NCBI GenBank assembly: GCA_002995645.1
Contig: PUHO01000017.1
Coordinates: 918-64,917 of the forward strand
Reading direction: 5' to 3'
From: SAR324 cluster bacterium
GTDB lineage: Bacteria; SAR324; XYD2-FULL-50-16; HCM1
Length of the DNA stretch: 64,000 bases
Below, one piece after another: positions 7,603 to 64,000 of the stretch (position 1 is the stretch's first letter; each line of letters opens with the position of its first letter). The translations under genes were made by a program, and so were the position numbers. The notes below the pieces were generated by a model. That model had not been told where the DNA came from. It did no database searches and was given only the letters and a program-made list of their open reading frames with translations.

Positions 7603-8724
<1,122 letters not shown>

Positions 8725-9868: not shown

Positions 9869-9982
9869 TTGCAAATCTCCAAAATTATGCGTTTAATCAA
9901 GTTGCAGTAGCTTATCTATTACGAATGATGTAAGCCACTAGTATTATATTAGCATAAAAATAAGAAAAAACAAATAGCAAAA

Positions 9983-12874: not shown

Positions 12875-13049
12875 TAATGTGTATAAAAAAGTAAAATATT
12901 AATTTTTTAAATAGTAGTAATAATACTATAGACGAGAGTTAGATTTTATTATATAGTAAAACTCTCTAAATAAGAATACCCTTTTATTAAAGAGCAGGCA
13001 AGTAGTATACTAACAAATCATATTATATACAAAGATTTATATTTAATTT

Positions 13050-36434: not shown

Positions 36435-36477
36435 ATTAGACGTACTTTTAATAAGAAATAAGGATTTTTTATAACAT

Positions 36478-36949
36478 CGCCACTTGTCTATTCATATTAG
36501 TACTAACTACTATGCCAATAGTAGGGATAGGCAAAGTTATTTCCTTTATTTTAGTACTATATTTACGTTACTAGTTTCGTAAAAGAAGTTTTAGTATAAA
36601 CTTACGAGTTGTCTATTTAAATCAGTGCTGATCACTATGCCAATAGTAGAGGGGAAAACTAAAGGCATAGGAATAGGCAACCTTACGTTACTAGTTTCGT
36701 AAAAGAAGTTTTAGTATAAACTTACGAGTTGTCTATTTAAATCAGTGTTGATCGCTATGCCAATAGTAGAGGGGAAAACTAAAGGCATAGGAATAGGCAA
36801 CCTTACGTTACTAGTTTCGTGAAAGAAATTTTAGTATAAAGTTGTCAGTTGCCTATTTAAATCAGTGCTGATCACTATGCCAATAGTAGAGGGGAAAACT
36901 AAAGGCATAGGAATAGGCAACCTTACGTTACTAGTTTCATAAAAGAATG
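36478..36949. repeat. about 4 tandem units (120-bp period) derived from an internal panB segment, directly downstream of the panB stop
   Basis: TTACGTTACTAGTTTCG recurs at 36563, 36683, 36803 and 36923. The unit core CTATGCCAATAGTAGAGG..GGAATAGGCAACCTTACGTTACT resembles panB 37115-37170 (CTATACCAATAGTAGGAATAGGTAGTTCTTGCGTTACT). Confidence 0.85.
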
Positions 36950-37726
36950 TTATTTAGAAAGAATCTCTTTTGCCTTAACTTTTTCTTGATAAGATTGAAG
37001 AGCTTCTTGCATAGCCTCACCAAGATGAGCTTGCACTGTAGCGTGTCTAGGTAAGAAATCAGGATTAAGATGAAACAAATCGTGAAAGACTTGCACTTGT
37101 CCGTCCGTATCGGCACCGGCACCTATACCAATAGTAGGAATAGGTAGTTCTTGCGTTACTTGTTTTGCAAAATCATGAGGTATGTTTTCCAATATAAGAA
37201 AACATATACCAGCATTAACAAGCGCTTTTGCGTCTTCCATTAAAGTTGTTTGTTGCTCCTGTGTTTTTGCTTGTTTTTGCCATCCGCCAAGTTGATGCAA
37301 TGATTGTGGCGTTAAACCAAGATGCCCAAATACGGGGATACCTGCTTGCGTAAGTGCTTTAACTTCCGGGCAAATAGATTTCCCGCCTTCAAGTTTAACT
37401 GCTTGAGCACAGGTCTCTTTCATAATGCGAGCGGCATTAAGCATAGTTTGCTCTATACTAATATGATAAGTCATAAAAGGCATATCGACAACAAGAAAAG
37501 CCGATTGATTTGCACGAGAAACTAATTTGCCATGATAAATAATTTCATCTAATGTAACAGGCAAAGTTGAATCATTACCTTGTACAACCATGCCAAGCGA
37601 ATCACCGACTAATATAATATCAACGTAACGATCTACTAAGCCGGCAGACCAAGCGTCATAGGCAGTAATCATAGCTATTTGTTGCTTACCTTTATATGCC
37701 ATTAATTCATGTTTTTGTTTTCGCAT
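36950..37726 (-). CDS. panB: 3-methyl-2-oxobutanoate hydroxymethyltransferase
   Basis: 258 aa with PanB blocks (MITAYD, ILVGDSLGMV.QG, VKLEGG, GHLGLTPQS). Confidence 0.95.
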   Translation of the reverse strand: MRKQKHELMAYKGKQQIAMITAYDAWSAGLVDRYVDIILVGDSLGMVVQGNDSTLPVTLDEIIYHGKLVSRANQSAFLVVDMPFMTYHISIEQTMLNAARIMKETCAQAVKLEGGKSICPEVKALTQAGIPVFGHLGLTPQSLHQLGGWQKQAKTQEQQTTLMEDAKALVNAGICFLILENIPHDFAKQVTQELPIPTIGIGAGADTDGQVQVFHDLFHLNPDFLPRHATVQAHLGEAMQEALQSYQEKVKAKEILSK

Positions 37727-39970: not shown

Positions 39971-41560
39971 ATGATAACAAAGTACGTTAATCAATCCTTT
40001 TTGCAATCTGATCTATTTTATTTTTTACTTTGCCTTATTTCTGCTTGCTTACTTGGCTTGCCTTTTTATGTTCCTAGTCTATTTTTTACTGTATGGATTG
40101 GTTGGATCCCTTTTTTATATGTTATAGAAAAACTGCCTTTGAAAAAAGTGTACTATTTTTCTTTGTTAATGAGTTTTTCTTTTATTGCTTTTATAGGATA
40201 TTGGATATATAACTTTTCTGAGATTTCGCTTAACTTAGCTTGGTATCTTTCTTTACTCATTGCCGTTCTTGCTTGGTTTTATACGGCACATAGTATTATT
40301 GTTCCTGTGTTGTTACATCAATGGCTTAAGCCCTATTTTTCGCGCTTTGTTTCGCTTTGTTGCTTTGCGTCTATGCTTACGTTAAGCCTTAGCTTATTCC
40401 CTGCCGTTTTTCCTTATACGTTTAGTTCAACGCAACTTAGCTTCCTTACTGTTTTGCAACCGATTGATATTACCGGCGAACTAGGGATTGATTTTTTAAT
40501 ACTACTTGTTAATATTACGTTATTTGATTTTTTCTTTTTATCACAAAGAAAAACAAAAAACTATCATTTCCTTGTTGGCACTTTCTTAGTGATTTGGCTA
40601 GCTATAGGCGCAGGAAAACAATATTATTGGAATACTAAAATAGAGTCGTGGCATAACATAAAAACAATTGGACTAGTACAACCAAACCACCCTATTCAAT
40701 ATGATGATACTCCTCATAGATTAGGTAATAATAAATGGGATATGCCGTTAGAAATGGAAATGAGTCAACAAGCTACGGCAAAGCAAAAGTTTGATTTTTT
40801 AGTTTGGCCGGAAGGTTTTTTCTATCGTACTTTTTATAATATACCGATAAGAAATGCGTTTGGAAGTTATGTTCGAGAGATGCAAACACCTATTATTTAT
40901 GTAGATATAGATCACAAAGTAAGTATAGATAAATTCAAAGAAAATCATTATCTTGCGTCTGTGTATATGAATAAACAAGGAGTCATTCAAAATAAATACT
41001 ATAAAATGAAACTAGTGCCGTTTGGTGAAAAATCGCCTTTTATTTTGGAGATTCCTTTTATAAGAGATTGGTTTGCTGATTTTATTGAAGATGGCTTGAC
41101 TGCTGGAAAAGAAGCGCAAATTTTCCCTATTGAAAACGTAAACCTTGCACCTGTTCTTTGTTATGAGTCGCTATTTCCTTTTTTTGTTGTTAAAGCAATT
41201 CGCAAAGGCACGACACACGGTAAAATGTTACTAGTACAATCGCAAGACGTTTGGTACGGTCACACAATCGCAGCTTGGTCGCATATGAAAATGTCCGCAA
41301 TACGAGCTATTGAAAATAGAGTTCCTTTGATTCATGTAATTAATAACGGACCTAGCAATGCATTTTTACCTAATGGAAAGCTAATAGCGCATGCCCCTAT
41401 GTTTAAACAGGTTGTGCAAACTATTGCTATGCCGTTTGACGAAACAAGCGGCGGTAGTTTCTTTACACAATATCCATATACGTTTATTTCTATTTTAGTG
41501 CTTTTTACTTTGTTTTATATTATACAAGGATTAGTTGCAAAGTATGTTAAGAAGCAATAG
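39971..41560 (+). CDS. lnt: apolipoprotein N-acyltransferase
   Basis: 529 aa. Multi-TM N-terminal half plus a CN-hydrolase domain with VWPE, the K in YYKMKLVPFGE and the catalytic Cys in LCYES. Confidence 0.85.
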   Translation: MITKYVNQSFLQSDLFYFLLCLISACLLGLPFYVPSLFFTVWIGWIPFLYVIEKLPLKKVYYFSLLMSFSFIAFIGYWIYNFSEISLNLAWYLSLLIAVLAWFYTAHSIIVPVLLHQWLKPYFSRFVSLCCFASMLTLSLSLFPAVFPYTFSSTQLSFLTVLQPIDITGELGIDFLILLVNITLFDFFFLSQRKTKNYHFLVGTFLVIWLAIGAGKQYYWNTKIESWHNIKTIGLVQPNHPIQYDDTPHRLGNNKWDMPLEMEMSQQATAKQKFDFLVWPEGFFYRTFYNIPIRNAFGSYVREMQTPIIYVDIDHKVSIDKFKENHYLASVYMNKQGVIQNKYYKMKLVPFGEKSPFILEIPFIRDWFADFIEDGLTAGKEAQIFPIENVNLAPVLCYESLFPFFVVKAIRKGTTHGKMLLVQSQDVWYGHTIAAWSHMKMSAIRAIENRVPLIHVINNGPSNAFLPNGKLIAHAPMFKQVVQTIAMPFDETSGGSFFTQYPYTFISILVLFTLFYIIQGLVAKYVKKQ

Positions 41561-42173
41561 GCTTACGATCTAAAAGTGAGCAGAAGAGCGCTTAAGTAGT
41601 CGATAAGTTGCATTAAGAGGCAAATCTACCTGGCAAGTAAAAGCGGGGCAAATTGCTTGCTTTATTCGCTAATTAGAAGTAATAAGCAAAGCAATAAATT
41701 TAGTGCTTTTTACTTTGTTTTATATTATACAAGGATTAGTTGCAAAGTATGTTAAAAAGAAGCAATAGGCTTACGAGCTAAAAGTAAGAAGAGCGCTTAA
41801 GTAGCCGATAAGTTGCATTAAGGGGTAAATCTACCTGGCAAGTAAAAGCGGGGCAAATTGCTTGCTTTGTTCACTAATTAGAAGTAATAAGCAAGACGAC
41901 AAATGTAATGCTTTTTATTTTATACTCTACAAGAATTAGTTGCAAAGTATGTTAAAAGCAATAGGCTTACGAACTAAAAGTAAGAAGAAGAGCGCTTAAG
42001 TAGCCGATAAGTTGCATTAAGAGGTAAATCGCACCGGCAAGTAAAAGCGGGGCAAATTGCTTGCTTTGTTCACTTTTCAAGATAACGTAAAAAGGCTTTA
42101 CAAAAGGATAAAGTAACCCGTCCATTACACGAATAAAGTGATTTCCAAAATTAGAAGTAATAAGCAAAGCAAC
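41496..42173. repeat. three tandem units (205-bp period) made of the lnt 3' end plus the 3' end and an internal piece of the convergent yggT-like gene
   Basis: TA(G/A)TGCTTTTTA(C/T)TTT starts units at 41496, 41701 and 41906. Each carries ...GTTGCAAAGTATGTTAA..AGCAATAGGCTTACG(A/C)..., which is the lnt stop region. Each also carries ...GCGCTTAAGTAG(T/C)CGATAAGTTGCATTAAG...AAAAGCGGGGCAAATTGCTTGCTTT, which is the yggT-like 3' end. Confidence 0.85.
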
Positions 42174-50149: not shown

Positions 50150-53100
50150 ATGGAATATATTCTTGGCATAGACATAGGAACGGCATCAGTAGGCATTGCC
50201 GCTTATGAACTAGATAATGATAAAGATAATAAGACAACAAAAAAATTATTACATTTAGATAGCTATATCTTTAAAGAACCAACAGAGCACGGACAATCTG
50301 GCTATGCTCTTAAAAATCAAACAAGACGGGAAAGAAGAATGGCGCGCCGTCAAACCCAGCGAACACAAAAGCGATATAAAAAAATATATTTATTTTGTAA
50401 ACAACATGGATTTTATGGCAAAGACGGCACAGATGATTGCCAACAAGACGTTATTACCTTACGTGCTAAAGCAGTCAGTGAAAAAATTCCTCTAGACGGA
50501 TTAGCAAAAGTTTTGCTTCATATGGCTAAAAATCGCGGGTATTACGGTGATTTTAAACGTGCTACAGACGGAACAGTCGCTAAGTCAATCCAAAAAGTAG
50601 AAGCAGAGATTCAAAACAAAGGCGTAAAGACGTTAGGGCAGTTATGGTATAAGCGCAGAGAAGACGCTAAGCAAGAACGTAAAGCATGGCGTAATATTGA
50701 GAAAACCGGAACTTATACAAGTCGTAAGATGACAGAAGAAGAGTTCAACTTAATTTTGCAAGAACAACAAAAACACCACCCTATTCTTAACGATAATATT
50801 AAGATTGTTAACCCTTGTATTTTTCACGACCTTTATAAAGCCGGCGAGTCTGTTCCTATGGCAGACGTGTTAGCGCATATTTTACTATACCAACGTCCTT
50901 TAAAATGGGATACAGAAACAATAGGTAAATGTCCTTTTCATGAAGATGAGCTACGCGTTTCACGTGCTTCGCCAATTTTCCAAGCGTTTCGTTTAGAACA
51001 AACGTTAGCTAATTTACGTTATAAAGAACTTAATTCTAAAAATGAAGATAAACAAAAAGCGTCTTCTTGGCAGCACTTTTCAGCAGAACAGTTACATGCA
51101 TTGCGACTTTTATTAAATCAGCAAAAAGAAGCTTCATGGAGTAAAGTATATGCTACGCTTAAACTAGATGACAAAGAAGTTAAAATTAATTTTGATCGTC
51201 GTCCTTCAGAAGATAAACCTTTATCAGGAAACGTAACGAATTACAATATGAAAACTTTAAAGCTTACTGATAAATGGGAAGCTTTAAACGAACAAGATAA
51301 AGAACTTGCAATGGCAATTGTTGCTAATATAAGCGATCCGGAAGCGTTAATATTGCCTGAAATGGTAGATTGTGAAAATCTAGAAGAGCTTGTACTTGAA
51401 GGTAGCGAGAAATACAGCTTGCCAATAGCTAACCTAGAACAGGTTATGACTTTTATACAAGCTATAGCTAATCATAAGAAATTAGGGACAGTTACGCAAA
51501 TGGGCTTTACTGCTGGACGTGCATCGTATGGTCATACAACATTGAAAGAACTTATTGCTCTTATGCAAGACGGTTTAGCTCCTGATGAAGCGACCGAGGC
51601 ATTACGTAAAAAATATAATAAAAGTGTTAAACAAGACGCCCATTTAGAATTATTAGACCCGCTTGCTCAATACTTACAAGGCGATGATTTACGCAATCCT
51701 GTTGTCAAAAAATCATTAGAAGAGTTTCGTGTTAGCTTTAATCATGCTATTCGCAAATGTAACAAACAAGGAGGCAAATTAACGCGTGTAGTTATAGAAA
51801 TGAGTCGTGATATGAAGCAATCTATTAGCGATCGTAGCGAAGATGAAAGGGAAATGGGTAAACGTCGCGCTATGAATCAAAGGATTTTGAAAGAGCTAGA
51901 AAAACACGGGCGAGCACTAGTAGGGAAGACTGATATTTTACGATATAGATTATATACAGAGCAATGGCATCAGTGTGCGTATTGTGGGAAAAAATTCGGT
52001 TTAAATGAAATCTTTGGTTATAATGCAGAAATAGATCACATTATCCCCCGTTCTAAAGGCGGAACAAATAGACAATTTAACTTAGCTTTAGTTTGTCGTG
52101 AATGTAATCAGAAAAAAACGAATCTTACACCTTTTCAAGCTTATGAATCGCATATTTTTTCTGATTCTCAGTGGGCTAGTATTATGAGTCTAGCTAAATC
52201 TTGGATTCCAGACGATAAACATACGCAACTAGAAGAAGATAAGTATAAAGCTAAGAAAGGAAAAAATTACGATAATCAAATGCGCGCTATTTTATTAGTG
52301 AGTAAAAAAATACCGGAAGAACGAACTAATACGTTTAATGATTCGCAAAATCAAGAAACTGCATGGGTAGGTCGTATAGTACGTGATTGGGTAGGAACGG
52401 TATGTGAAGACGTTCGTGTAACAAGAGGAAGTATTACAGCTCATTTGCGGCAAATATGGGGTGTAGATCAAATTTTGCCTGAGTTACGTAGACAAGAAGG
52501 AAAACCGCTTTTGAATGAAGATAAAGGATTAATTACAGAACAAGAATATAAAGCGTTTATATCTAAACGAGATGAGGTAACAAAACAAGAATTAGAAACA
52601 CGTCATTATTTACATAAGTTTGATAAACGGTGCGATCAACGTCATCATGCTATTGATGCGGCTGTCATTGCACAATCTACTACTTCTATTTTGCAACGAG
52701 CCACCGATCATCGTAAAAAATATGATTCGCTTTGGAAAACGACTCTTTATTTTCCAGCTAGTTATTATAATGCTCATAAAGATGAATATAAAGCTTATCG
52801 CGAAGATTATTTTACAAGTAAAGCCGGTAAGCAATGGGTAAAGATAAAAGTGGAAAAATTTAATCCCGGGAAGCCTCATAATAATTTTGTACTCAATTTG
52901 AAACAGGCTTTACTTCATTATACAGTATGGTCAAAGCCGGATCGCTTTGCGTCAGGTAGCTTTTTTCAAGAAAATCCATCAGGTTACCGTACGTTTAATG
53001 ATGAGCCGGCATTAACGCAGCGTATTACATTACGTGATCTATATGATAAATGTTGTAAAATGAAAGCTAAACAAAAAGATATAGAATCAGATCAAGATAT

Positions 53101-53866
53101 TACTGAAAATCATTTGAAAGTTTTCTTTCATTATATTATTGGTGATAATTTACGTACTTACTTAATCGGTAAAGTTAAAGAACGATTAAACGAAGGTATG
53201 AGTTTTCAAGAAGCTTTACTAGGTAAAGGCGTCTCATTAGAAGAAAATACAGACGGAACAGATGAAGATAAAATAGAATCCTTTCTTCCAGACGGTAGGC
53301 AAGACGGAATTTATTTTCCAGAAAATACGCAAAATCGTTTACATAAACTATATTATTGGCAAGGTAATTATAATCCTATACAGCATAAAAGCGTTATATA
53401 TGGTGAGAAAGAAAAACAACGAGCTATATGGGTTGCTAATAATTATGCAGCATTAAAAGCTAACGTAGAAACAAAATCATGGAAGTTTATTTCCCAAGCT
53501 GATTTTGAACAAGAAGTATATCAATATGAATCACCAAATAAAGATAGTAAACAAAAACGTGTTTATAAAGGAGGTACGTTTAAGCAAAACGAAATTATTT
53601 TTTTCAAAAGTCAAATGATTTTTCATACTGAAAGTAAACAATTTTATATTATTACAGGGTTAAATAGAGCGCATAATTATATAGAAGCTATTCTTACTAA
53701 TGAAGATTATTCTGCCTTTAGTAAAGCAATAGCACAAACAGGCTATGTACATACAAAAAATAAGCGTGCTGGTGTTACTTTTACTAAGTCAGTTATTCCA
53801 ATTCTTATCCCTGTTCACTCAAGGGAAGATATGGTTCGTATAAAAAAAGAATACGGTATAGCATAA
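50150..53866 (+). CDS. cas9: CRISPR-associated endonuclease Cas9 (type II; II-C-like gene content)
   Basis: 1238 aa. Contains RuvC-I ILGIDIGTASVGIA, the arginine-rich bridge helix RRERRMARRQTQRTQKR and RuvC-II VVIEMSRD. Also HNH EIDHIIPRSKGGTNRQFNLALVCRECNQKK and RuvC-III RHHAIDAAVIA. Followed by cas1 and cas2 only. Confidence 0.95.
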   Translation: MEYILGIDIGTASVGIAAYELDNDKDNKTTKKLLHLDSYIFKEPTEHGQSGYALKNQTRRERRMARRQTQRTQKRYKKIYLFCKQHGFYGKDGTDDCQQDVITLRAKAVSEKIPLDGLAKVLLHMAKNRGYYGDFKRATDGTVAKSIQKVEAEIQNKGVKTLGQLWYKRREDAKQERKAWRNIEKTGTYTSRKMTEEEFNLILQEQQKHHPILNDNIKIVNPCIFHDLYKAGESVPMADVLAHILLYQRPLKWDTETIGKCPFHEDELRVSRASPIFQAFRLEQTLANLRYKELNSKNEDKQKASSWQHFSAEQLHALRLLLNQQKEASWSKVYATLKLDDKEVKINFDRRPSEDKPLSGNVTNYNMKTLKLTDKWEALNEQDKELAMAIVANISDPEALILPEMVDCENLEELVLEGSEKYSLPIANLEQVMTFIQAIANHKKLGTVTQMGFTAGRASYGHTTLKELIALMQDGLAPDEATEALRKKYNKSVKQDAHLELLDPLAQYLQGDDLRNPVVKKSLEEFRVSFNHAIRKCNKQGGKLTRVVIEMSRDMKQSISDRSEDEREMGKRRAMNQRILKELEKHGRALVGKTDILRYRLYTEQWHQCAYCGKKFGLNEIFGYNAEIDHIIPRSKGGTNRQFNLALVCRECNQKKTNLTPFQAYESHIFSDSQWASIMSLAKSWIPDDKHTQLEEDKYKAKKGKNYDNQMRAILLVSKKIPEERTNTFNDSQNQETAWVGRIVRDWVGTVCEDVRVTRGSITAHLRQIWGVDQILPELRRQEGKPLLNEDKGLITEQEYKAFISKRDEVTKQELETRHYLHKFDKRCDQRHHAIDAAVIAQSTTSILQRATDHRKKYDSLWKTTLYFPASYYNAHKDEYKAYREDYFTSKAGKQWVKIKVEKFNPGKPHNNFVLNLKQALLHYTVWSKPDRFASGSFFQENPSGYRTFNDEPALTQRITLRDLYDKCCKMKAKQKDIESDQDITENHLKVFFHYIIGDNLRTYLIGKVKERLNEGMSFQEALLGKGVSLEENTDGTDEDKIESFLPDGRQDGIYFPENTQNRLHKLYYWQGNYNPIQHKSVIYGEKEKQRAIWVANNYAALKANVETKSWKFISQADFEQEVYQYESPNKDSKQKRVYKGGTFKQNEIIFFKSQMIFHTESKQFYIITGLNRAHNYIEAILTNEDYSAFSKAIAQTGYVHTKNKRAGVTFTKSVIPILIPVHSREDMVRIKKEYGIA

Positions 53867-53954
53867 TAAAATTATGGCAAACAATCATATTATTACTTTA
53901 TCTTCTCCAGCTTATATACATGTTGATTTAAAACCTGTTGTTATTGAAAATAAA
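53722..53954. repeat. left 233-bp direct repeat (cas9 3' end + 7-nt spacer + first 27 codons of cas1)
   Basis: Aligns colinearly, without indels, to 56307..56539 (offset 2585 bp). I counted about 20 mismatches by hand. Confidence 0.9.
53874..53954 (+). pseudogene. orphan 5' fragment of cas1 (27 codons)
   Basis: MANNHIITLSSPAYIHVDLKPVVIENK compared with the genuine Cas1 N-terminus MANDHIITLSSPAYIHVDSKRVVIENK (56459..). Beyond this it runs into unrelated cassette sequence and stops after 46 codons. Confidence 0.85.
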
Positions 53955-54003
53955 AATAATTATAAGACTACTTATAACGAAAGAATGGAAAAAGGAATGT
54001 TCT

Positions 54004-55506
54004 ATGAAGATTAATGTAAATAATACAAAAAAAATAGTTTTTTCAGAAAAAGAGGCTATCGATATATTTCAAATGTTAAATCCCTATTTTGAAGACAATG
54101 AGAAATTTTTATTAGAATCTTTAAGTGGACCAAAAAAAGATTGTAAAAGTTCTATAATAGGGCTTTCTCCTATTTTAAACCTTAGAGTTTCAAATAAGAA
54201 AATATATATTTCTTCTACATATCTGTTAGATAGTATAAAAAAACAATTAGAAGAAAAGGTTGAAATCAAAGAAAAAGGAGAAGAACTACAAATAGCAATA
54301 CAAAATATTCAAGAACTTTACTTTACAATGAAAGAAATAGAGAATATTTTTATTCAAAAAAAACAAATAAAAGGTTTAGAGTCATTAGGTTGGTTTGGTT
54401 ATTTTGGTTATGATACTATTTTTTATATAGAAAATATCAAACAAAGTATTCCAAGAGATTGTGAGATCCCAGAAATAGAACTTTCAATTTATAGTACGAT
54501 TCTCAATTTTGATATAAAAACTAAAAAAGTAGAACTTTATCATAGTTCAATTAAGGAAGTAAATAATGATAAAAATATTAATTTAATTGAAAAAATATTG
54601 GTAGATGAAAAAAAGGAAATTGTTGATACAATTTCAAATGAAAAATTCAAATTTAATGTCACGCCAACAGTAAATAAAGAAAAATACAAAGAATGGTTTA
54701 AGAAAGTTAAACATCATATAGATATTGGGGATATCTATCAAATCCAAATAGGTCATGCACTAAAGATAAAAAGCAATAAACCGCCTTATCTTACCTATTT
54801 AGATATGAGAGAAAAAAATCCTTCTCCTTATATGTATTTCTTTACAACAAACACAGGTTTAACTTTAATAGGAGCTAGTCCTGAAGTTTTTATTAATATT
54901 GATAATGACAAAAAACTAGTTATGAGACCTATTGCAGGGACTATAAAAAAAGGAAATTCTCAAATTGAAACTGAAAATAATAGAAAAACATTATTAAGTG
55001 ATGAAAAAGAAAAAGCTGAACATTTAATGCTTGTAGATTTATGTAGAAACGATATTGCAAGATGTTGCATTCCTCAAACGCTAAACGTTGATGAGCTTAT
55101 GATTTTAGAAGAATATTCTCACGTCATTCATATTGTTTCTGATATTCATGGAACAGTAGAAACAAATTTAACTAAATATGATGTTATTTCAAATACTTTT
55201 CCAGCAGGAACGATGACAGGAACGCCTAAAGTAAGAGCTATTGAGTTAATAGAAGAAACTGAAAACTTAGAAAGAGGCACTTATGCAGGAACAATCGGAT
55301 TTTTTGGATTTAATGATTTTGTAATTTCAGCCCTTTGTATAAGAACTGCTAGTTATAGAGATAAAGAGTATTCTATCAGAGCATCTGGAGGAATTGTAGA
55401 AGACTCTACGGCTCTTGGAGAATGGCAAGAAACGATTAGTAAACTAAGTTCACCGTATTTAGCTATAACAGGGAGGGAGTTAAGAAATGAAGATTTTATT
55501 AATTGA
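54004..55506 (+). CDS. anthranilate synthase component I-like chorismate-utilising enzyme (TrpE family; a PabB role not excluded)
   Basis: ORF 53938..55506. I prefer ATG 54004 (MKINVNN..., AAAGGAA upstream), giving 500 aa. TrpE-type motifs: FLLESLSG, NPSPYMYFF..GASPE, RPIAGT (Ala, not the Lys of E. coli-type PabB), LMLVDLCRND, PAGTMTGTPKVRA and GGIVEDS. Confidence 0.85.
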   Translation: MKINVNNTKKIVFSEKEAIDIFQMLNPYFEDNEKFLLESLSGPKKDCKSSIIGLSPILNLRVSNKKIYISSTYLLDSIKKQLEEKVEIKEKGEELQIAIQNIQELYFTMKEIENIFIQKKQIKGLESLGWFGYFGYDTIFYIENIKQSIPRDCEIPEIELSIYSTILNFDIKTKKVELYHSSIKEVNNDKNINLIEKILVDEKKEIVDTISNEKFKFNVTPTVNKEKYKEWFKKVKHHIDIGDIYQIQIGHALKIKSNKPPYLTYLDMREKNPSPYMYFFTTNTGLTLIGASPEVFINIDNDKKLVMRPIAGTIKKGNSQIETENNRKTLLSDEKEKAEHLMLVDLCRNDIARCCIPQTLNVDELMILEEYSHVIHIVSDIHGTVETNLTKYDVISNTFPAGTMTGTPKVRAIELIEETENLERGTYAGTIGFFGFNDFVISALCIRTASYRDKEYSIRASGGIVEDSTALGEWQETISKLSSPYLAITGRELRNEDFIN

Positions 55507-56065
55507 TTCATATGATAGTTTTGTTTATATCATAAAAAATTATATAGAACGTTTAGGTCACGAAACTCATATTGTAAGGAATGATAAAGTTAAATTAGAA
55601 ACGTTACATCAATATAATTTAATTATATTAGGTCCGGGTCCGGGGCATCCTCTTGAATGTGGCTATCTTGAAATTATAAAAAAAGTTGAAGGGGAAATTC
55701 CTATTTTAGGTGTTTGCTTAGGTCTACAAGCTATTGGTTGTTATTATGGTTCTAAAGTTGTTAGAGCCGAAAAAAGACTCCACGGAAAAACTAGTTTAAT
55801 AAAAAATGATCAAAAAGGATGTTTTAAAAACTTGCCTTCTATTTATGAAGTGGCAAGATATCATTCTTTAATTATTGAAAAAATAGAACCTAATCAAGAA
55901 ATTATATGTAGTGCTACCTCTGTAAATGATAATTATATTATGGGGGTAAGGCATAAAACACATAGCATCGAAGGTGTTCAGTTCCATCCGGAAAGTATAA
56001 AAAGTAATTATGGATTACAACTTATAGAGAATTTTATAGAAAATTCAAAAAAAGGGAGTCTTTAA
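55487..56065 (+). CDS. class I glutamine amidotransferase, TrpG/PabA type (anthranilate synthase component II-like)
   Basis: 192 aa that overlaps the upstream gene by 20 nt. Contains LLIDSYDSF, the nucleophile block GVCLGLQAI and the HPES histidine block (GVQFHPESI). Confidence 0.9.
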   Translation: MKILLIDSYDSFVYIIKNYIERLGHETHIVRNDKVKLETLHQYNLIILGPGPGHPLECGYLEIIKKVEGEIPILGVCLGLQAIGCYYGSKVVRAEKRLHGKTSLIKNDQKGCFKNLPSIYEVARYHSLIIEKIEPNQEIICSATSVNDNYIMGVRHKTHSIEGVQFHPESIKSNYGLQLIENFIENSKKGSL

Positions 56066-56094
56066 TAATTATTATTAAAAATAAGAACTATAGA

Positions 56095-56451
56095 ATGTTA
56101 CTTGGATTTTTAGCATGTTTATTATGGTCAACAGGATTTGTTGGTGTTAAGTTTAGATTAAAATACATAGATTCTCCTTTACTTTTTGCAGGAGAAAGAT
56201 TTTTTCTAGCAGGTCTTTTTATTGCTCCCTTTTGTTGGGGAAAAGATTTTAAAATTATTATGTATATGACTATATTTAATACAATTTTAGGTTATTTTGC
56301 TTATGCTAAAGCAACAGCACAAACAGGCTATATACATACAAAAAATAAACGTGCCGGTACTACATTTAAACAATCAATCATTCCAGTTCTTATCCCTGTT
56401 CACGCAAGGGAAGATATGGTTCGTATAAAAAAAGAATACAGTATAGCATAA
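56095..56451 (+). pseudogene. chimeric remnant: internally deleted EamA/DMT-transporter fragment fused in frame to a duplicated Cas9 C-terminal tail
   Basis: The first about 70 aa (MLLGFLACLLWSTGFVGVKF...RFFLAGLFIAPF...IFNTILGYFAYAKA) look like pieces of an EamA transporter that would normally be about 290 aa. The last 44 aa (AQTGYIHTKNKRAGTTFKQSIIPVLIPVHAREDMVRIKKEYSIA) parallel the Cas9 C-terminus. Confidence 0.75.
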
Positions 56452-56539
56452 TAAAATTATGGCAAACGATCATATTATTACTTTATCTTCTCCAGCTTAT
56501 ATACATGTTGATTCAAAACGTGTTGTTATTGAAAATAAA
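56307..56539. repeat. right 233-bp direct repeat (duplicated cas9 3' end + 7-nt spacer + genuine cas1 start)
   Basis: Partner of 53722..53954; see that feature. Confidence 0.9.
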
Positions 56540-57427
56540 GGTAAAGACCCCATGTTTTTTGCACCTCATGATATTGCCGTGCTTATTCTCGATCATCCGG
56601 CTCTTGTGTTAACACATGAAGTTTTTCGTGTATTAGCAGAAAGTAATGCTATTGTTCTATCTTGTACACGTGAACATTTGCCTGATACTATGACTATTCC
56701 CTTGTTTAAGAATAAGCAGGGAGCACGTAATGCATTTTATCAAATTAAAGCAATGAAAAACGGCGTTTATAAAAAAGCGTGGCAACAAATAATCCAATCT
56801 AAATTATACGGACAGGTTTATTGTGCAGAAAAGCTTGCGTTACCTAATTTATATTATTTGTATGATCGTGCCAAAAAAGTTACGCTTGATAATGCTTATG
56901 AACAAGAGGCATTTGCCGCAAAACTGTATTGGCAAGCTATATTTAAACAAATTGAAGGAGCTGATCGCCGTTATAAACAAGGAGCAGAAGATATTATTAA
57001 TACAAGCTTGAATTATGGTTATGCTGTTGTTCGTGCTATGGTTGCAAGAAGCCTTTGTGCGCACGGTTTAGTGTTAAACTATGGTGTCGGTCATATACGT
57101 AAAGATAATCCTTTTAATTTAGTAGAAGATTTTATTGAACCCTATCGCTTTCTTGTTGATTCAATTGTGCTTCCTGGTATTATACAAGGTAAGATAGTCG
57201 GCGATGAGCTTTCTCCTATAACGAAAAGATATATTTTATCTCAAATTGTAGAGTTTCAGCCTGTTTTAGGAAAGGCAACTTATCGCCTTTTACATGGGAT
57301 AGATAAAACTATTACTAGCTTTTGTAAGCTATTAGAAGTAGGTCGCGGTCAAATTGAATTGCCAAACAAACCGCAAAAAGGAAGACCAAGTAAAACCTTT
57401 CCTACTTTGAAGCATACAGTTGTATGA
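56459..57427 (+). CDS. cas1: CRISPR-associated endonuclease Cas1 (type II)
   Basis: 322 aa. Cas1 blocks SLNYGYAVVRA, GVGHI and LVEDFIEPYR (metal-binding His/Glu/Asp) are intact. Its stop overlaps the cas2 start (ATGA). Confidence 0.9.
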   Translation: MANDHIITLSSPAYIHVDSKRVVIENKGKDPMFFAPHDIAVLILDHPALVLTHEVFRVLAESNAIVLSCTREHLPDTMTIPLFKNKQGARNAFYQIKAMKNGVYKKAWQQIIQSKLYGQVYCAEKLALPNLYYLYDRAKKVTLDNAYEQEAFAAKLYWQAIFKQIEGADRRYKQGAEDIINTSLNYGYAVVRAMVARSLCAHGLVLNYGVGHIRKDNPFNLVEDFIEPYRFLVDSIVLPGIIQGKIVGDELSPITKRYILSQIVEFQPVLGKATYRLLHGIDKTITSFCKLLEVGRGQIELPNKPQKGRPSKTFPTLKHTVV

Positions 57428-58011
57428 AAACAAGTTTCAAAATTATGTGGGTTCTTGCAACTTTTGATTTACCTGTAAAAACGAAACTAGAACGTAAACG
57501 TTATATGCGTTTTCGTAAACAACTTCTTGCAGAGAACTATTTACACTTACAGTTTTCTGTATACTTAAAGCACTTTCCTACGTTTCATGCTGCTCAATCT
57601 AATGTTACTAGATTAAAACATAGTATCCCACCAAATGGAAAAGTATGCTTTTTTTATCTTACAGATAAGCAATATAGCATGACGGCAAATTACTACGGAC
57701 CTTATATACAAAGGGAAGCTTTGCCTCAAAAGTTAACGCAAGCTCTTTTCTTTGATAATGAACAAATAACAATGGACGGAGCATTAGAAGAGGACGTAAC
57801 GAAAGTTACTAATGAAATGGAGCAAAAGTTTTCTATAGAGCAAGTAATTGGAGAAAGTGAAGAAGAAAGTAATATAGAGCAACAAGTAACGTTAACTGAA
57901 TTATGGGATCAAAACGAGGTAGAGCCTGTTACTATACAAAGTACGCAAAAGAAAAAGAGAAACAAAAAGCGATTGTCTCATCAAAGCACAAATCAGCAAA
58001 TAAAATTTTAG
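57424..58011 (+). CDS. cas2: CRISPR-associated endoribonuclease Cas2 with an about 95-aa C-terminal extension
   Basis: The N-terminal about 100 aa are type II Cas2-like (MWVLATFDLPVKTKLERKRYMRFRKQLLAENYLHLQFSVYLKH...GKVCFFYLTDKQY). The tail is acidic and ends with a basic KKKRNKKR patch. Confidence 0.85.
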   Translation: MKTSFKIMWVLATFDLPVKTKLERKRYMRFRKQLLAENYLHLQFSVYLKHFPTFHAAQSNVTRLKHSIPPNGKVCFFYLTDKQYSMTANYYGPYIQREALPQKLTQALFFDNEQITMDGALEEDVTKVTNEMEQKFSIEQVIGESEEESNIEQQVTLTELWDQNEVEPVTIQSTQKKKRNKKRLSHQSTNQQIKF

Positions 58012-58030: not shown

Positions 58031-58170
58031 TATAAAATAAAAGACTCCATTTACAGAAGCCTTTTATTTTTAGATTGTAATGATATGAAATATCTTATCT
58101 ACAGAGTAAGCTTACGCTATCTCCTTATTACCGAAGGCGTGTTTTCTTAAATAGTATATAAGTATAGTAC
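58031..58170 (-). ncRNA. tracrRNA-like unit, copy 1 (cas2-proximal)
   Basis: The minus strand reads ...ACUAUUUAAGAAAACACGCCUUCGGUAAUAAGGAGAUAGCGUAAGCUUACUCUGUAGAUAAGAUAUUUCAUAUCAUUACAAUCUAAAAAUAAAAGGCUUC-UGUAAAU-GGAGUCUUUUAUUUUAUA. Its 5' part is complementary to the minus-sense repeat GUUCCGAUUGUGCUUUCUUAAAUAGU, with an internal loop. AAUAAGG follows the anti-repeat, as in known tracrRNAs. The terminal hairpin works with G-U pairs only on the minus strand. Ends are approximate. Confidence 0.5.
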
Positions 58171-58215
58171 TATATTTATCAAATAAAAGATAATTTTATA
58201 GTAGGAAATATTTTA

Positions 58216-58355
58216 TTACTAAAATAGAAGACCCCATTTTGTAGAAGTCTTCTATTTTTAGATTGTAATGATATGAAATATCTTATCTACGGAGTAAGCT
58301 TACGCTATCTCCTTATTACCGAAGGTGTTTTCTTAAATATAGTATACTAGTATTA
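58216..58355 (-). ncRNA. tracrRNA-like unit, copy 2 (array-proximal; better full-length anti-repeat)
   Basis: The minus strand reads ...UACUAGUAUACUAUAUUUAAGAAAACACCUUCGGUAAUAAGGAGAUAGCG...AUAGAAGAC-UUCUACAAAAUGGG-GUCUUCUAUUUUAGUAAU. By hand it pairs with about 29 of 36 positions of the minus-sense repeat, including G-U pairs, with a 2-nt bulge. The 69-nt core matches copy 1 with one mismatch. It has a perfect 9-bp terminator stem. Ends are approximate. Confidence 0.55.
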
Positions 58356-58470
58356 TATTATATATGTCAAATAAAAAATTATTTATTAAATTTAACTTTA
58401 ATTTTCAGTGTTTTTGTTATATAAAAACAGATTATTTAATAAATAAATTCAACATGCTACATATTTAGCT

Positions 58471-61400
58471 AGTCTAGCACACTATTTAAGAAAGCACAAT
58501 CGGAACGTATTTGTCCAGGTCTCCAGCCTGATTTTGAGTCTAGCACACTATTTAAGAAAGCACAATCGGAACTCATTTTTTGCGAATAATTCGCCGTTAT
58601 CAAGTCTAGCACACTATTTAAGAAAGCACAATCGGAACCAGCAAGGGAAACAGTACCTAATAATGTTAAGTCTAGCACACTATTTAAGAAAGCACAATCG
58701 GAACTATGATTTCCTTGGTAGGTTTTATAAATATAGTCTAGCACACTATTTAAGAAAGCACAATCGGAACTTTATATGAAGAAAGAGACCTACAACTTTT
58801 AGTCTAGCACACTATTTAAGAAAGCACAATCGGAACAAAGCCTTGATAACAAGCTCGGCATTGGCAAGTCTAGCACACTATTTAAGAAAGCACAATCGGA
58901 ACTCGATAAACAAAACAAATCGAGAAAGCATTAGTCTAGCACACTATTTAAGAAAGCACAATCGGAACTCAATTAACAAAACAAACCGAGAAAGTATTAG
59001 TCTAGCACACTATTTAAGAAAGCACAATCGGAACAGCCTACCTCATATCGCCCACCTTGCATTTAGTCTAGCACACTATTTAAGAAAGCACAATCGGAAC
59101 GCTTAAGTCGTGATGTTCAGAATTAATGCCAGTCTAGCACACTATTTAAGAAAGCACAATCGGAACATCGCATTGCCGATCGGTACGTACAATAAGAGTC
59201 TAGCACACTATTTAAGAAAGCACAATCGGAACTAAAATTCTTTTGTAGTTGGATTGTGTCTTAGTCTAGCACACTATTTAAGAAAGCACAATCGGAACAT
59301 AAAGTTGCGTCAAATTTAATTTTATGGAAGTCTAGCACACTATTTAAGAAAGCACAATCGGAACCTAAATATGTTACTATGAAACAACGTGCTAAGTCTA
59401 GCACACTATTTAAGAAAGCACAATCGGAACTTGTGTCCTTCTTACATTCGAAATAATTAAAGTCTAGCACACTATTTAAGAAAGCACAATCGGAACCGCC
59501 AAATAAAAAAGGATTGATTTTATAAGAGTCTAGCACACTATTTAAGAAAGCACAATCGGAACCCGCTGGTTCTCTTGCTGATTATTTCGGTCAGTCTAGC
59601 ACACTATTTAAGAAAGCACAATCGGAACAGTTACGTCTTGTTGGTGCTATTGACGACTAGTCTAGCACACTATTTAAGAAAGCACAATCGGAACGACGGT
59701 GCTGTTCATTACTTTGGTCAATTAAGTCTAGCACACTATTTAAGAAAGCACAATCGGAACGATGTACTCTATTTAGAAAGTCTTTTTCCGAGTCTAGCAC
59801 ACTATTTAAGAAAGCACAATCGGAACCGTTAACAGGTGTTAACCTGTTTAATTTAAAGTCTAGCACACTATTTAAGAAAGCACAATCGGAACTAACTAAG
59901 TATGCAAAGTTTGATTGGGACGAGTCTAGCACACTATTTAAGAAAGCACAATCGGAACTAAATAATGTTTTCATTTTTAGTCTCTTTTAGTCTAGCACAC
60001 TATTTAAGAAAGCACAATCGGAACCTACAATTTTAATTTTTGAATAAGGTTTTTAGTCTAGCACACTATTTAAGAAAGCACAATCGGAACTCTTTTCTTT
60101 TATTAAACCAGTCCTGTGTTAGTCTAGCACACTATTTAAGAAAGCACAATCGGAACAGCAAGCGGAGGTAGCTTAATTAAAGCAGTAGTCTAGCACACTA
60201 TTTAAGAAAGCACAATCGGAACATGGGATTTGAACCCATAATACCGGATTGAAGTCTAGCACACTATTTAAGAAAGCACAATCGGAACCAAGAAGGAAAA
60301 TGGAAAAAACAACTAAAAAGTCTAGCACACTATTTAAGAAAGCACAATCGGAACAAGATTACAGAGATATAGCACCGCTTGCGAAGTCTAGCACACTATT
60401 TAAGAAAGCACAATCGGAACAAGATTATAGAGACGTCGCACCGCTTGCGAAGTCTAGCACACTATTTAAGAAAGCACAATCGGAACATATCTTGTAAAAT
60501 AGCTTCAATTTCTTTGAGTCTAGCACACTATTTAAGAAAGCACAATCGGAACATAGTAGTATCAATTTCAGCTCCGCTATTTAGTCTAGCACACTATTTA
60601 AGAAAGCACAATCGGAACCCCGTACTTCTTTTATATTTTTTTCATTTAAGTCTAGCACACTATTTAAGAAAGCACAATCGGAACTTGTGGAAAACAAGGC
60701 GATGTAATAAATTTAGTCTAGCACACTATTTAAGAAAGCACAATCGGAACACTTTAATAGATCTTACATTCCCCTTACGAAGTCTAGCACACTATTTAAG
60801 AAAGCACAATCGGAACAAAGAAACGCCCATTGTTTTGGACGCAACGAGTCTAGCACACTATTTAAGAAAGCACAATCGGAACAGAGTTCATATATAGTTC
60901 AGCAAATGCTATAGTCTAGCACACTATTTAAGAAAGCACAATCGGAACAAATTATCGTTAAGACTTGCCGCAACTCCAAGTCTAGCACACTATTTAAGAA
61001 AGCACAATCGGAACTGGGGTACTTAGATAGTATATATTAAAATTAGTCTAGCACACTATTTAAGAAAGCACAATCGGAACCTTTACGAACGTCACTATTA
61101 TTTATTGTTGAGTCTAGCACACTATTTAAGAAAGCACAATCGGAACAATGCGGTGTCAAGTGTGTAGGTGTTACCTAGTCTAGCACACTATTTAAGAAAG
61201 CACAATCGGAACATAGTAGTATCAATTTCAGCTCCGCTATTTAGTCTAGCACACTATTTAAGAAAGCACAATCGGAACTTGTTTCACAAATCGCCAGTAT
61301 AGTATAAAAGTCTAGCACACTATTTAAGAAAGCACAATCGGAACAATTTTCACACCAAACAACGCGATCCCGCGAGTCTAGCACACTATTTAAGAAAGCA

Positions 61401-64000
61401 CAATCGGAACACAACAGATAGCACATGTATATAAAAAGTGAGTCTAGCACACTATTTAAGAAAGCACAATCGGAACTGTAAATTTACCTGTACGATTTAC
61501 TATTGAAGTCTAGCACACTATTTAAGAAAGCACAATCGGAACAAGATAGAAAGAAGCCCGTCTAACGACACGAGTCTAGCACACTATTTAAGAAAGCACA
61601 ATCGGAACGACTGTTCTTAAGCTTAAACTAAAGCGGCTAGTCTAGCACACTATTTAAGAAAGCACAATCGGAACCATCAGCGCTAAATGTTTCGATAAAA
61701 TAAGAGTCTAGCACACTATTTAAGAAAGCACAATCGGAACATTCCTTGTTTAATAACGCCGCCTTCTTCTAGTCTAGCACACTATTTAAGAAAGCACAAT
61801 CGGAACATGCGCCTGAAATAACGAATGCAAGCATAGAGTCTAGCACACTATTTAAGAAAGCACAATCGGAACAAGTGTGTCTTAATTTTAACTATAATTT
61901 ATAGTCTAGCACACTATTTAAGAAAGCACAATCGGAACATATTATAATGTCGTTAAGGTAGCTTAATTAGTCTAGCACACTATTTAAGAAAGCACAATCG
62001 GAACGATTGTCTTTCGCTTTTTAATCCTATTTTTAGTCTAGCACACTATTTAAGAAAGCACAATCGGAACTCTTTTAATAGCATTTTGAATGGAACCAGA
62101 AGTCTAGCACACTATTTAAGAAAGCACAATCGGAACAAATTATCATAATGAAAAGCAACCGGATCAAGTCTAGCACACTATTTAAGAAAGCACAATCGGA
62201 ACAAGGTATTTTAGCGGTCACATCTATAGCATAGTCTAGCACACTATTTAAGAAAGCACAATCGGAACTAAACCACTCATGATTATTCTTAGCTACCTAG
62301 TCTAGCACACTATTTAAGAAAGCACAATCGGAACCTGTCCACCACGTTAAAGAATAGTCATAGCAGTCTAGCACACTATTTAAGAAAGCACAATCGGAAC
62401 ATAAACTAATACCCAAAGAAGCAACGTTAAAGTCTAGCACACTATTTAAGAAAGCACAATCGGAACGCAGTAGGAGAAATTGTTGCTAGCAATGGAAGTC
62501 TAGCACACTATTTAAGAAAGCACAATCGGAACATATAAAGGAGCTCAAGAAGCTAACGCTACAGTCTAGCACACTATTTAAGAAAGCACAATCGGAACTT
62601 TGCCTGTTGGCGTTGTTCCTGATGGCATAGTCTAGCACACTATTTAAGAAAGCACAATCGGAACAAAATTCGTTTCATGATGTGTGCAGAGTATAGTCTA
62701 GCACACTATTTAAGAAAGCACAATCGGAACTCGAATTGAGATCAAAACCATTATTTTTTAAGTCTAGCACACTATTTAAGAAAGCACAATCGGAACAATC
62801 TAAATTAACAACCGGCATGCGCCATAAGTCTAGCACACTATTTAAGAAAGCACAATCGGAACGTGGTATTTTTAGCGGTGTAGGCAATGCTTAGTCTAGC
62901 ACACTATTTAAGAAAGCACAATCGGAACCGCGTGTCGGTGTCTAGCTCGTAGCACTGGAGTCTAGCACACTATTTAAGAAAGCACAATCGGAACCGATTG
63001 GAACATATAATAAATATTCAAAACAGTCTAGCACACTATTTAAGAAAGCACAATCGGAACACCTATCGGATACTGTTGTAGTCTACCTGAAGTCTAGCAC
63101 ACTATTTAAGAAAGCACAATCGGAACATATGTGCCCGCGCTTCGGGCGATAGGTGTAGTCTAGCACACTATTTAAGAAAGCACAATCGGAACATGGCTAT
63201 TGAAGCAAACACTTAACCCAAGAGTCTAGCACACTATTTAAGAAAGCACAATCGGAACAAAGCTTATAGTTTAGATAAACAAAAGAAAAGTCTAGCACAC
63301 TATTTAAGAAAGCACAATCGGAACCTTTGTTTTGATTGTGCAAATCGTAGTACAAGTCTAGCACACTATTTAAGAAAGCACAATCGGAACTCAACGCATT
63401 TTCAACGCGCTCAGTTTGTAAGTCTAGCACACTATTTAAGAAAGCACAATCGGAACTAAATAAAGGGAATGCAAGCGGCTTGTATTAGTCTAGCACACTA
63501 TTTAAGAAAGCACAATCGGAACACCTAACTATTTATTGTCTAAATATGCTGAAGTCTAGCACACTATTTAAGAAAGCACAATCGGAACTTGCGCTAGATA
63601 AATGTTGACTTGATTTTTAGTCTAGCACACTATTTAAGAAAGCACAATCGGAACAGCGCAAGCATTTGCGCTTCTTTTTTTAAAAGTCTAGCACACTATT
63701 TAAGAAAGCACAATCGGAACCTCATTATATTTTTTCGAACGGAAATTTTAAGTCTAGCACACTATTTAAGAAAGCACAATCGGAACCAAAATCAAGTACG
63801 CTATTAATCGGCAACAAGTCTAGCACACTATTTAAGAAAGCACAATCGGAACAGTTACATGATGTCGGTCAGTTGTCTGTTGAGTCTAGCACACTATTTA
63901 AGAAAGCACAATCGGAACTTGTTTTTATTTAATATTACACGTAACATTAGTCTAGCACACTATTTAAGAAAGCACAATCGGAACAAGACTCAAATAGAGA
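58471..64000. CRISPR. CRISPR array: 36-nt repeat AGTCTAGCACACTATTTAAGAAAGCACAATCGGAAC (plus sense), 30-nt spacers, 66-bp period; 84 repeats in the window and continuing past the edge
   Basis: The first repeat is 58471-58506 and the 84th is 63949-63984, so (63949-58471)/66 = 83 exactly. I noticed no variant repeat. There are 83 complete spacers plus a partial one. I infer minus-strand transcription because the repeat then reads GTTCCGATTGTGC...TGCTAGACT and pairs with the minus-strand tracr candidates. Confidence 0.97.

Follow-up and report, generated by a model that had tools for sequence, protein, structure and literature searches.

A fragment of a foreign operon lies between cas9 and cas1 of a type II-C-like CRISPR-Cas locus and is flanked by two copies of their junction

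This study concerns a type II-C-like CRISPR-Cas locus in a 64-kb stretch of DNA (64,000 nucleotides, referred to here as the window) from a SAR324 cluster bacterium (GenBank assembly GCA_002995645.1, contig PUHO01000017.1), and in particular the DNA that separates its cas9 and cas1 genes. An intact cas9 of 1238 amino acids (aa) occupies 50150..53866 on the forward strand; its product matches the Pfam families RuvC_III, Cas9_a and HNH, and the NCBIfam model cas_Csn1 with 369 bits against a cut-off of 100. An intact cas1 of 322 aa follows on the same strand at 56459..57427 (Pfam Cas_Cas1; NCBIfam cas1_NMENI, 183 bits against a cut-off of 120). Between these genes lie 2352 bp of inserted foreign DNA (53955..56306, forward strand), which stand out by their composition, by their gene content and by a truncated gene at each end. 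The insert carries two complete genes, encoding a TrpE-like chorismate-utilising aminase subunit and a TrpG-like glutamine amidotransferase subunit, and it is bracketed by two copies of the cas9|cas1 junction.

Pairwise alignment of 53722-53954 with 56307-56539 yields a direct repeat of 233 columns with no gaps and 19 mismatches, i.e., 91.8% identity, in good agreement with a preliminary description in which about 20 mismatches, about 90% identity and no indels had been counted by hand. Each repeat unit consists of 145 nt of the 3' end of cas9 (stop codon at 53864-53866), a 7-nt gap and codons 1-27 of cas1. The left copy (53722..53954, forward strand) contains the live cas9 tail, the gap and a dead cas1 head of 27 codons, and the right copy (56307..56539, forward strand) contains a dead cas9 tail, the gap and the live start of cas1. 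The intact Cas9 is thereby finished by the left copy and the intact Cas1 begun by the right copy, as had been described. The two 7-nt gaps are found at 53867-53873, between cas9 and an open reading frame (ORF) of 46 codons, and at 56452-56458, between an ORF of 118 codons and cas1. The right edge of the repeat is abrupt (53954|53955). Its left edge is soft, with weak similarity reaching left to 53695 in one copy and to 56280 in the other; 53695-53721 and 56280-56306 agree at 17/27 positions, a level not equalled in any of 2250 control windows taken from the insert. This patch of microhomology is located at the joint between EamA transporter sequence of the donor and the start of the duplicated unit (EamA'|cas9-tail).

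The insert comes from a foreign donor that is more AT-rich than the host. Its two complete genes have GC contents of 27.1% and 28.7%, as compared with 34.8% for cas9 and a mean of 35.6 ± 3.1% for the other ORFs of the window (n = 38). At third codon positions (GC3) the values are 14.8% and 15.1%, versus 26.0 ± 2.6% (minimum 20.5%) in the same 38 ORFs, which places the insert genes about four standard deviations below the other genes of the window. Arginine is encoded by AGA or AGG in 19 of 20 cases in the insert, in 13 of 72 in cas9 and in 3 of 15 in cas1. The low GC content and the preference for these arginine codons had been pointed out in the preliminary description, and composition and codon usage do distinguish the insert from its flanks; the hand counts given there were exaggerated, namely, 15-25% G+C for single lines of the insert and 47% for one line of cas9.

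Relatives of the TrpE-like protein occur in Photobacterium, Mixta, Serratia, the Bifidobacterium asteroides group, a Neisseriaceae isolate, Francisellaceae, Paenibacillus and many metagenome contigs, the best of them at 54% identity. The taxa that have relatives of the insert and those that have relatives of a host marker (HtpG) do not overlap. At the nearest homologs the TrpG-like gene is always next, with an identical 20-nt overlap, and a gene of the FMN_red family precedes the TrpE-like gene at the loci designated L001 (in a shorter form), L083/L084, L087/L088 and L089/L090. The FMN_red stop overlaps the TrpE-like start by 11-44 nt, and the relative frame is constant across these loci. An EamA transporter gene lies upstream of FMN_red in L001, L083/L084 and L087/L088. 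The FMN_red proteins have a compact cysteine cluster, e.g., C47, C50, C57 and C64 in L083.

The four-gene operon EamA–FMN_red–TrpE-like–TrpG-like spans 1294-4884 of L001, 4466-8056 of L083, 4486-8044 of L087 and 2842-6400 of L088, and a CX2C...C...C cluster is present in the FMN_red proteins of L083 and L087. It is apparently widespread in unrelated bacteria, horizontally mobile, uncharacterised and often AT-richer than its surroundings; the TrpE-like gene has a GC content of 39.0% in L001, 33.7% in L083 and 36.5% in L089, versus 47.6%, 39.3% and 43.0%, respectively, for the locus around it. A larger cluster is found on Photobacterium-like contigs (L089/L090, 376-8062), in which LysE (divergent), a cupin, a TrpB paralog that exceeds the trpB equivalog cut-off, a UbiD-family decarboxylase, a CM_2 chorismate mutase and a B3_4-domain protein are followed by FMN_red, TrpE-like and TrpG-like genes; parts of it are also found in L083 (1-8056). 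This cluster looks like a pathway for a chorismate-derived specialised metabolite. In L083, a phage-type integrase gene lies directly past the TrpE-like/TrpG-like module and a TraG_N gene 4 kb further on (8149-13497), and the module may be carried there on an integrative conjugative element. Taken together, the composition of the insert, the non-overlapping taxa, the AT-rich nature of the module in other hosts and its integrase and TraG neighbours in L083 support a horizontal origin.

The preliminary description spoke of a trpE/trpG-like cassette at the cas9|cas1 junction. Foreign DNA does lie there between two complete copies of the junction, but it is a contiguous internal slice of a donor operon that truncates a gene at each end, and no discrete cassette. 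No integrase or transposase domain was found in the insert (ORF list and Pfam), and a repeat search detected neither terminal inverted repeats nor inverted repeats bracketing it, in line with that description. The insert also differs from a transposon, an insertion sequence or an integron cassette, with a duplication of 233 nt and both ends cutting through genes. In plasmid and phage collections, relatives of the TrpE-like protein did not exceed 37% identity, and similarity at the DNA level was limited to conserved motifs of about 70 nt.

At both ends of the insert, host and donor sequences are fused in frame, for which the chance expectation is 1 in 9. The left hybrid ORF (53874..54014, forward strand, 46 codons) joins cas1 codons 1-27 to 19 donor codons that encode NNYKTTYNERMEKGMFYED and then the stop, which overlaps the ATG of the TrpE-like gene by 11 nt. 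The 19-codon segment contains the NER motif of FMN_red C-termini, has the same relative frame as FMN_red in L001, L083, L087 and L089, and shares the 11-nt overlap with L083; it is a probable 3' stub of a donor gene for an FMN_red iron–sulfur (Fe-S) flavoprotein, to which these features are suggestive pointers. The right hybrid ORF (56095..56451, forward strand, 118 codons) starts 29 nt past the TrpG-like stop and ends 7 nt ahead of the cas1 ATG. Its first approximately 71 codons encode part of an EamA (drug/metabolite transporter, DMT) protein, matching profile positions 5-87 of 135 of the Pfam model, and continue in frame into the dead last 47 codons of cas9. The donor operon would have had the order Fe-S flavoprotein, TrpE-like, TrpG-like and EamA transporter. 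A circular permutation of the operon seen in other bacteria was considered as well and rejected, as the EamA sequence of the insert gave BLASTP E-values >1 against the upstream EamA of the homolog operons and represents a different DMT gene, not an ortholog.

The TrpE-like gene (54004..55506, forward strand, 500 aa) is intact and its product matches Pfam Chorismate_bind and Anth_synt_I_N; in the program-made ORF list its frame extends upstream to a TTG at 53938. The protein belongs to an unclassified clade with a PIAGT motif, of which P309-T313 are invariant in the family alignment, and at 122 of the 125 columns that are strongly conserved in the family it has the expected residue, a score that falls inside the range shown by other members. 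The label trpE-like of the preliminary description therefore needs qualification, since the protein stays below every curated TrpE cut-off (trpE_most, 382.8 versus 517.7; TrpE-arch, 355.6 versus 512; trpE_proteo, 200 versus 495) and every PabB cut-off (PabB-clade2, 266 versus 408.6; pabB, 240 versus 328), and its clade is normally coupled to an Fe-S flavoprotein. It also scores below the curated NCBIfam cut-offs for isochorismate synthase and salicylate synthase, and is roughly equidistant from solved TrpE and PabB structures. The TrpG-like gene (55487..56065, forward strand, 192 aa) is likewise intact, overlaps the TrpE-like gene by 20 nt (an overlap that is identical in 7/7 loci) and encodes a Pfam GATase protein that reaches 182 bits against a cut-off of 121 for the NCBIfam trpG_papA subfamily, carries the GVCLG and HPE motifs of the class-I amidotransferase active site, and is 54-59% identical to the partners of the TrpE-like homologs. 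When neutral drift of 4% was simulated, the TrpE-like ORF stayed open in 1.6% of cases and the TrpG-like ORF in 16%. Both genes look functional and appear to be maintained. The pair most likely encodes a glutamine-dependent chorismate aminase, for which the best guess at the product is 2-amino-2-deoxyisochorismate (ADIC), or anthranilate; some database members of the TrpE-like clade are named 2-amino-4-deoxychorismate synthase. The usual flavoprotein partner, which would perform the second step, would have been lost when the fragment was cut out.

Downstream of cas1, the CRISPR-Cas locus continues with cas2 (57424..58011, forward strand, 195 aa; Pfam CRISPR_Cas2 at residues 8-86, NCBIfam cas2). 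Cas2 has a polar or acidic C-terminal extension of about 100 residues past the domain, and the Cas2 proteins of the nearest relatives have 102-114 aa. Next come two tandem tracrRNA-like genes on the reverse strand (58040..58415) in 188-nt units that are 89% identical, each with an anti-repeat and a promoter-like site. The anti-repeats, at 58313-58339 and 58139-58172, are complementary to the CRISPR repeat, and sigma-70-like promoter matches on the minus strand read TTGACA-18-TATACT (58370->58341) and TTGATA-18-TATACT (58182->58153), with 11/12 or 10/12 matching positions. This layout implies that the crRNAs are read off the minus strand, opposite to the cas genes. At gathering thresholds, Rfam gave no match in the whole window, neither to an rRNA nor to a curated tracrRNA, and the putative tracrRNA genes are assigned by complementarity and position only. 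The array (58471..63984) runs to the end of the window with 84 identical 36-nt repeats and 83 spacers, among which one is duplicated (60553 and 61213, ten units apart). Self-targeting by the spacers was considered and dropped, as comparison with the rest of the window, the insert and all fetched loci gave only chance matches of 13-17 nt.

With a Cas9 that has RuvC and HNH domains, cas1 and cas2 present, csn2 and cas4 absent, tracrRNA-like genes and an array, the locus is of type II-C, and the interval from cas9 to the array contains no ORFs of at least 40 aa other than cas1, cas2 and the insert genes. The nearest relatives of Cas9 are only 30% identical; in these, cas9, cas1 and cas2 abut directly with overlaps of 11-23 nt and nothing between them, and the interrupted arrangement of the window is for this reason considered derived. 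Apart from the insert, the CRISPR locus looks functional and its array recently active.

The seven ORFs of the cas9-cas2 stretch share one strand, with gaps of at most 29 nt or overlaps, and no terminator-like site was found on the forward strand between 49900 and 58500. Promoter-like matches in the cas9-cas2 region are no commoner than in shuffled sequence; one is located at 56248-56276, just upstream of cas1. Given this tight same-strand string without a terminator-like site, it is plausible that cas1 and cas2 are expressed by read-through from cas9 via the insert. The preliminary description had put cas1-cas2 2.6 kb from cas9 and had them probably transcribed through the insert: the distance is correct, and co-transcription with cas9 could run only via the insert. 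The stop of the left hybrid ORF overlaps the start of the TrpE-like gene, an arrangement that native operons show for the end of the flavoprotein gene, and the right hybrid ORF uses the native cas9 stop, 7 nt ahead of cas1. Judging from these arrangements, translational coupling may have been preserved at both junctions through the in-frame fusions.

The window also encodes housekeeping functions, namely, ilvD, htpG, lptD, lnt, a class II 3-deoxy-D-arabino-heptulosonate 7-phosphate (DAHP) synthase and a futalosine-type (menaquinone) decarboxylase. Genes for lipopolysaccharide comprise lptD, an lpxL-like and a kpsF-like gene, and the overall GC content is 34%. HtpG (31816-33681, reverse strand) finds relatives of at most 58% identity, the top matches being metagenome-assembled genomes labelled Proteobacteria, Deltaproteobacteria, SAR324 or 'bacterium'. 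With at most 58% identity for HtpG and at most 30% for Cas9, the host represents a deep, poorly sampled lineage. No relative of Cas9 or Cas1 above 30% identity was found among 5.8 billion proteins, exact look-ups of both proteins in an assembly index for sister strains returned no record, and a degenerate DNA pattern of the cas9 C-terminus and stop had 0 matches in metagenome contigs. A scan of genome contigs with the TrpE-like family alignment, which keyed on generic TrpE motifs, gave, among the matches listed, only distant TrpE genes of at most 39% identity.

Besides the junction repeat, the 64-kb window contains at least five small tandem duplications, with units of 120-267 nt at 89-96% identity, or 70-98% across the 2-4 copies of the four that lie outside the tracrRNA region. 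These are a 267-nt unit (96% identity) at 4040-4573, which takes in the 3' end of the ORF 4341-4865; a unit of about 250 nt in three copies at 1836-2453, which takes in the 5' end of the ORF 1259-2035; a 120-nt unit in three to four copies at 36456-36960; a unit of about 205 nt in three copies at 41494-42120, which takes in the 3' end of lnt; and the 188-nt unit (89%) of the tracrRNA region at 58040-58415. Several of them cover gene termini, so that the live gene has dead copies of its end next to it, which is also the situation at cas9|cas1, and in several units one part is well conserved and another strongly diverged, like in the cas junction repeat. A separate 2.4-kb field of degenerate interspersed and tandem repeats (21344-23734; units of about 50-220 nt, 10-14 copies, 60-96% identity) lies between the ORFs 20612-21241 and 23739-25526 and has no ORF of at least 150 aa and no Rfam match.

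Any model for the origin of this structure requires two illegitimate joints, one linking the donor's flavoprotein gene to codon 27 of cas1 and one linking the cas9 tail to the donor's EamA gene. The explanation favoured here, held with evenly balanced confidence, is local and takes one step: a single duplicative event of illegitimate recombination inserted the fragment and duplicated the resident junction. Linear DNA from an AT-richer donor would have been captured between cas9 and cas1 by recombination at the level of microhomology, and a stretch of 233-260 bp at the resident junction of cas9 and cas1 would have been duplicated in the same event, with template switching during replication, unequal joining of sister chromosomes or a circle formed together with resident DNA as candidate mechanisms. 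Because the junction was duplicated, with the left copy completing cas9 and the right copy beginning cas1, the CRISPR system would have survived the insertion. Afterwards the copies would have diverged to 92% identity, radical changes would have accumulated in the dead cas1 head, and in part of the repeat similarity was probably maintained or restored by homogenisation; the insert would now be a passenger in the cas operon. Its position exactly at the joint of two full units, for which an independent insertion would have a chance of a few in 233, favours one combined event, and real support for a local duplication comes from the small tandem duplications that are a habit of the host genome. 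Some observations nevertheless sit uneasily with a single local event. The mismatches between the copies are clustered: the first 98 nt contain 15 of the 19 and the remaining 135 nt the other 4 (Fisher p = 0.001). This is not predicted by simple drift after duplication, so that an extra assumption is required, such as gene conversion over part of the repeat or unequal constraint along it. No stop codon occurs in the dead cas9 tail and its replacements are mostly conservative (V/I three times, S/A, G/S), features that a once-functional foreign allele also fits. The databases searched held no empty-site allele and no sister or donor genome, by which the direction and timing of the event would have been directly observed. 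At the left end of the insert, the assignment to an FMN_red gene is drawn from a three-residue motif, the frame and the overlap geometry, and BLASTP gave no significant match.

The divergence of the copies, clustered in the cas9-tail part, and the conservative changes of a dead tail without a stop would fit a history in which one repeat copy was imported from a relative diverged by about 8-15% and came in with the insert, either on a circle via a Campbell-type single crossover or on linear DNA via homology-facilitated illegitimate recombination (HFIR). The repeats would then never have been identical and the event may be recent; intact insert ORFs and an un-ameliorated composition would require no selection, and exact full-length flanking copies are the product of a single crossover. 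We consider such an import possible but rather unlikely. It is less parsimonious, as in the donor the foreign fragment must already have been linked to a cas9 tail, a cas1 head or both, for which the two illegitimate joints are still required beforehand, and no second diverged Cas9 or Cas1 of the same type exists among the 5.8 billion proteins. Moreover, the three differences in the cas1 head are all non-synonymous and radical and fall in the dead copy (N4, L19 and P21), whereas the live Cas1 agrees with its relatives (R21 is kept, D4 is as in one relative, S19 stands where relatives have T); they resemble changes accumulated by a decaying dead copy more than differences between alleles. Pooled over both parts of the repeat, about 5.5 differences are synonymous and 13.5 non-synonymous, and this synonymous fraction of 5.5/19 is under the expectation for two functional alleles under typical constraint and fits one live and one dead copy better, on counts that are small. 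For the cas9-tail part dN/dS is 0.54, a value that suits an imported allele, and both dN/dS and the codon-position counts are based on too few differences to tell a local duplication from an import. The preliminary description had proposed either a Campbell-type integration or a local tandem duplication followed by insertion. Local duplication gains support from its recurrence in the window; Campbell-type integration is possible and, in view of the decay of the cas1 head and the substitution counts, not favoured. A plain tandem duplication of the junction that provided about 230 nt of dispensable DNA in the operon, into which the foreign fragment was inserted later, would have insert-free counterparts of the same size class at gene termini (1836-2453, 4040-4573, 41494-42120 and 58040-58415), and the dead segment would be the sole place in a tight operon where insertion is neutral. 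This sequence of events is nonetheless judged unlikely and less probable than one combined event, as a fragment landing at random in about 230 nt would rarely come within a few bases of the joint of two complete units, and as the 17/27 microhomology at the joint itself ties the boundary of the duplication to the foreign DNA. An assembly or amplification chimera of two strains or loci has to be kept in mind for a structure seen once, in one metagenome-derived contig of 65.7 kb, but is very unlikely: copies that are 92% identical with a longest shared exact run of about 45 nt are poor substrates for a repeat-induced misjoin, the reads must contain each of the two novel junctions as a specific sequence, and both junctions are in-frame fusions in a region that forms a coherent same-strand operon. 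It is extremely unlikely, lastly, that the TrpE-like and TrpG-like genes are more than passengers, recruited to serve CRISPR as an accessory or defence module. They are embedded in the cas operon, probably co-transcribed with it, and appear maintained; on the other hand, no cas genes were found near the nearest TrpE-like homologs in the loci examined, PADLOC models gave 0 matches for the four insert-encoded proteins, the nearest Cas9 relatives lack the insert, and the fragment ends cut unrelated genes.

An event of this kind, i.e., horizontal capture of a fragment by illegitimate recombination with duplication of the target, is already known, and it is described here for one locus on one contig. 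The location is unusual, and there are instructive details: the fragment stems from inside an operon, it is fused in frame at either side, and the genome is rich in duplications of gene ends. The case illustrates a route by which foreign genes may enter a tightly packed, coupled operon without destroying the neighbours, as each of them is still present in one intact copy once the junction is duplicated, and ribosome traffic through the operon may be sustained by the in-frame hybrid ORFs. It also offers a natural situation in which the adaptation genes lie 2.6 kb from cas9 behind metabolic genes, next to an array with 84 identical repeats, and in which expression coupling in type II-C systems could be tested. 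There is no evidence for a functional link of the enzyme pair to CRISPR, and the understanding of CRISPR or of chorismate enzymes is unchanged; as a by-product, an uncharacterised operon of an EamA transporter, an Fe-S flavoprotein and TrpE-like and TrpG-like proteins was brought to light. It could be speculated that recurrent duplications of gene ends (about 120-270 bp) in this deep, AT-rich lineage admit foreign genes into tight operons between overlapping or coupled genes, either by providing dispensable DNA or by arising together with captured DNA, with cas9|cas1 as the first example caught and with the pair co-transcribed and translationally coupled with the adaptation genes and under selection, but taken as a whole this generalisation is improbable.

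Type II-C loci, as in Neisseria and Campylobacter, consist of cas9-cas1-cas2, a tracrRNA and an array. The window shares with them cas9, cas1, cas2, tracrRNA-like genes and an array of 36-nt repeats, without csn2 or cas4; it differs in the 2.6-kb non-cas segment that parts cas9 from cas1, genes that overlap in the nearest relatives, in the tandem duplication of the tracrRNA gene and in a Cas2 that is about 90 residues longer. The enzyme pair has the fold families (Chorismate_bind and class-I GATase) and the two-subunit arrangement of canonical TrpE/TrpG and PabB/PabA, and its larger subunit has the PIAGT motif of TrpE-type enzymes. Unlike canonical TrpE and PabB, that subunit scores below every curated equivalog cut-off; it lacks the Lys of the PIKGT motif of Escherichia coli PabB, and neither trpD/C/B/A nor pabC lies alongside the pair. 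SgcD-like ADIC synthases form ADIC from chorismate without pyruvate elimination, and SgcG is an FMN-dependent [Fe-S] dehydrogenase that produces 3-enolpyruvoylanthranilate (PMC10098953). The operon found in other bacteria resembles these SgcG/SgcD steps, the first two of benzoxazolinate biosynthesis, in that a cysteine-cluster FMN_red gene is placed directly upstream of the TrpE-like gene and overlaps it; the comparison with SgcD/SgcG of C-1027 biosynthesis and related benzoxazolinate gene sets is one of gene arrangement. It differs in that no acyl-AMP ligase was seen in the homolog loci and, for the window, in that the flavoprotein gene is only a 19-codon stub, by which at most the first step would be left.

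With regard to the event itself, Campbell-type integration likewise places two full-length direct copies of the homology around the insert with no loss of a target gene. At cas9|cas1, by contrast, there is no integrase, att site or replicon, the ends of the insert are truncated genes, and the copies differ by 8%, with changes in the cas1 head that look like later decay. HFIR occurs in natural transformation in Acinetobacter, Pseudomonas stutzeri and Streptococcus, and usually replaces or deletes recipient DNA beside a homologous anchor. The term is discussed in PMC6382021. Common to HFIR and the window is the fixation of non-homologous foreign DNA via a joint with microhomology (17/27 at EamA'|cas9-tail); the difference is that recipient DNA is duplicated in the window, where any anchor from another strain would be hypothetical. 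Template switching of the type of fork stalling and template switching (FoSTeS) or microhomology-mediated break-induced replication (MMBIR) leads to tandem duplications with inserted DNA at the join point. In the present case the template would be exogenous and 2.35 kb in length, and the process is read back from one sequence; the resemblance consists of a duplicated target around templated foreign sequence, microhomology at the joint and a window with many small tandem duplications.

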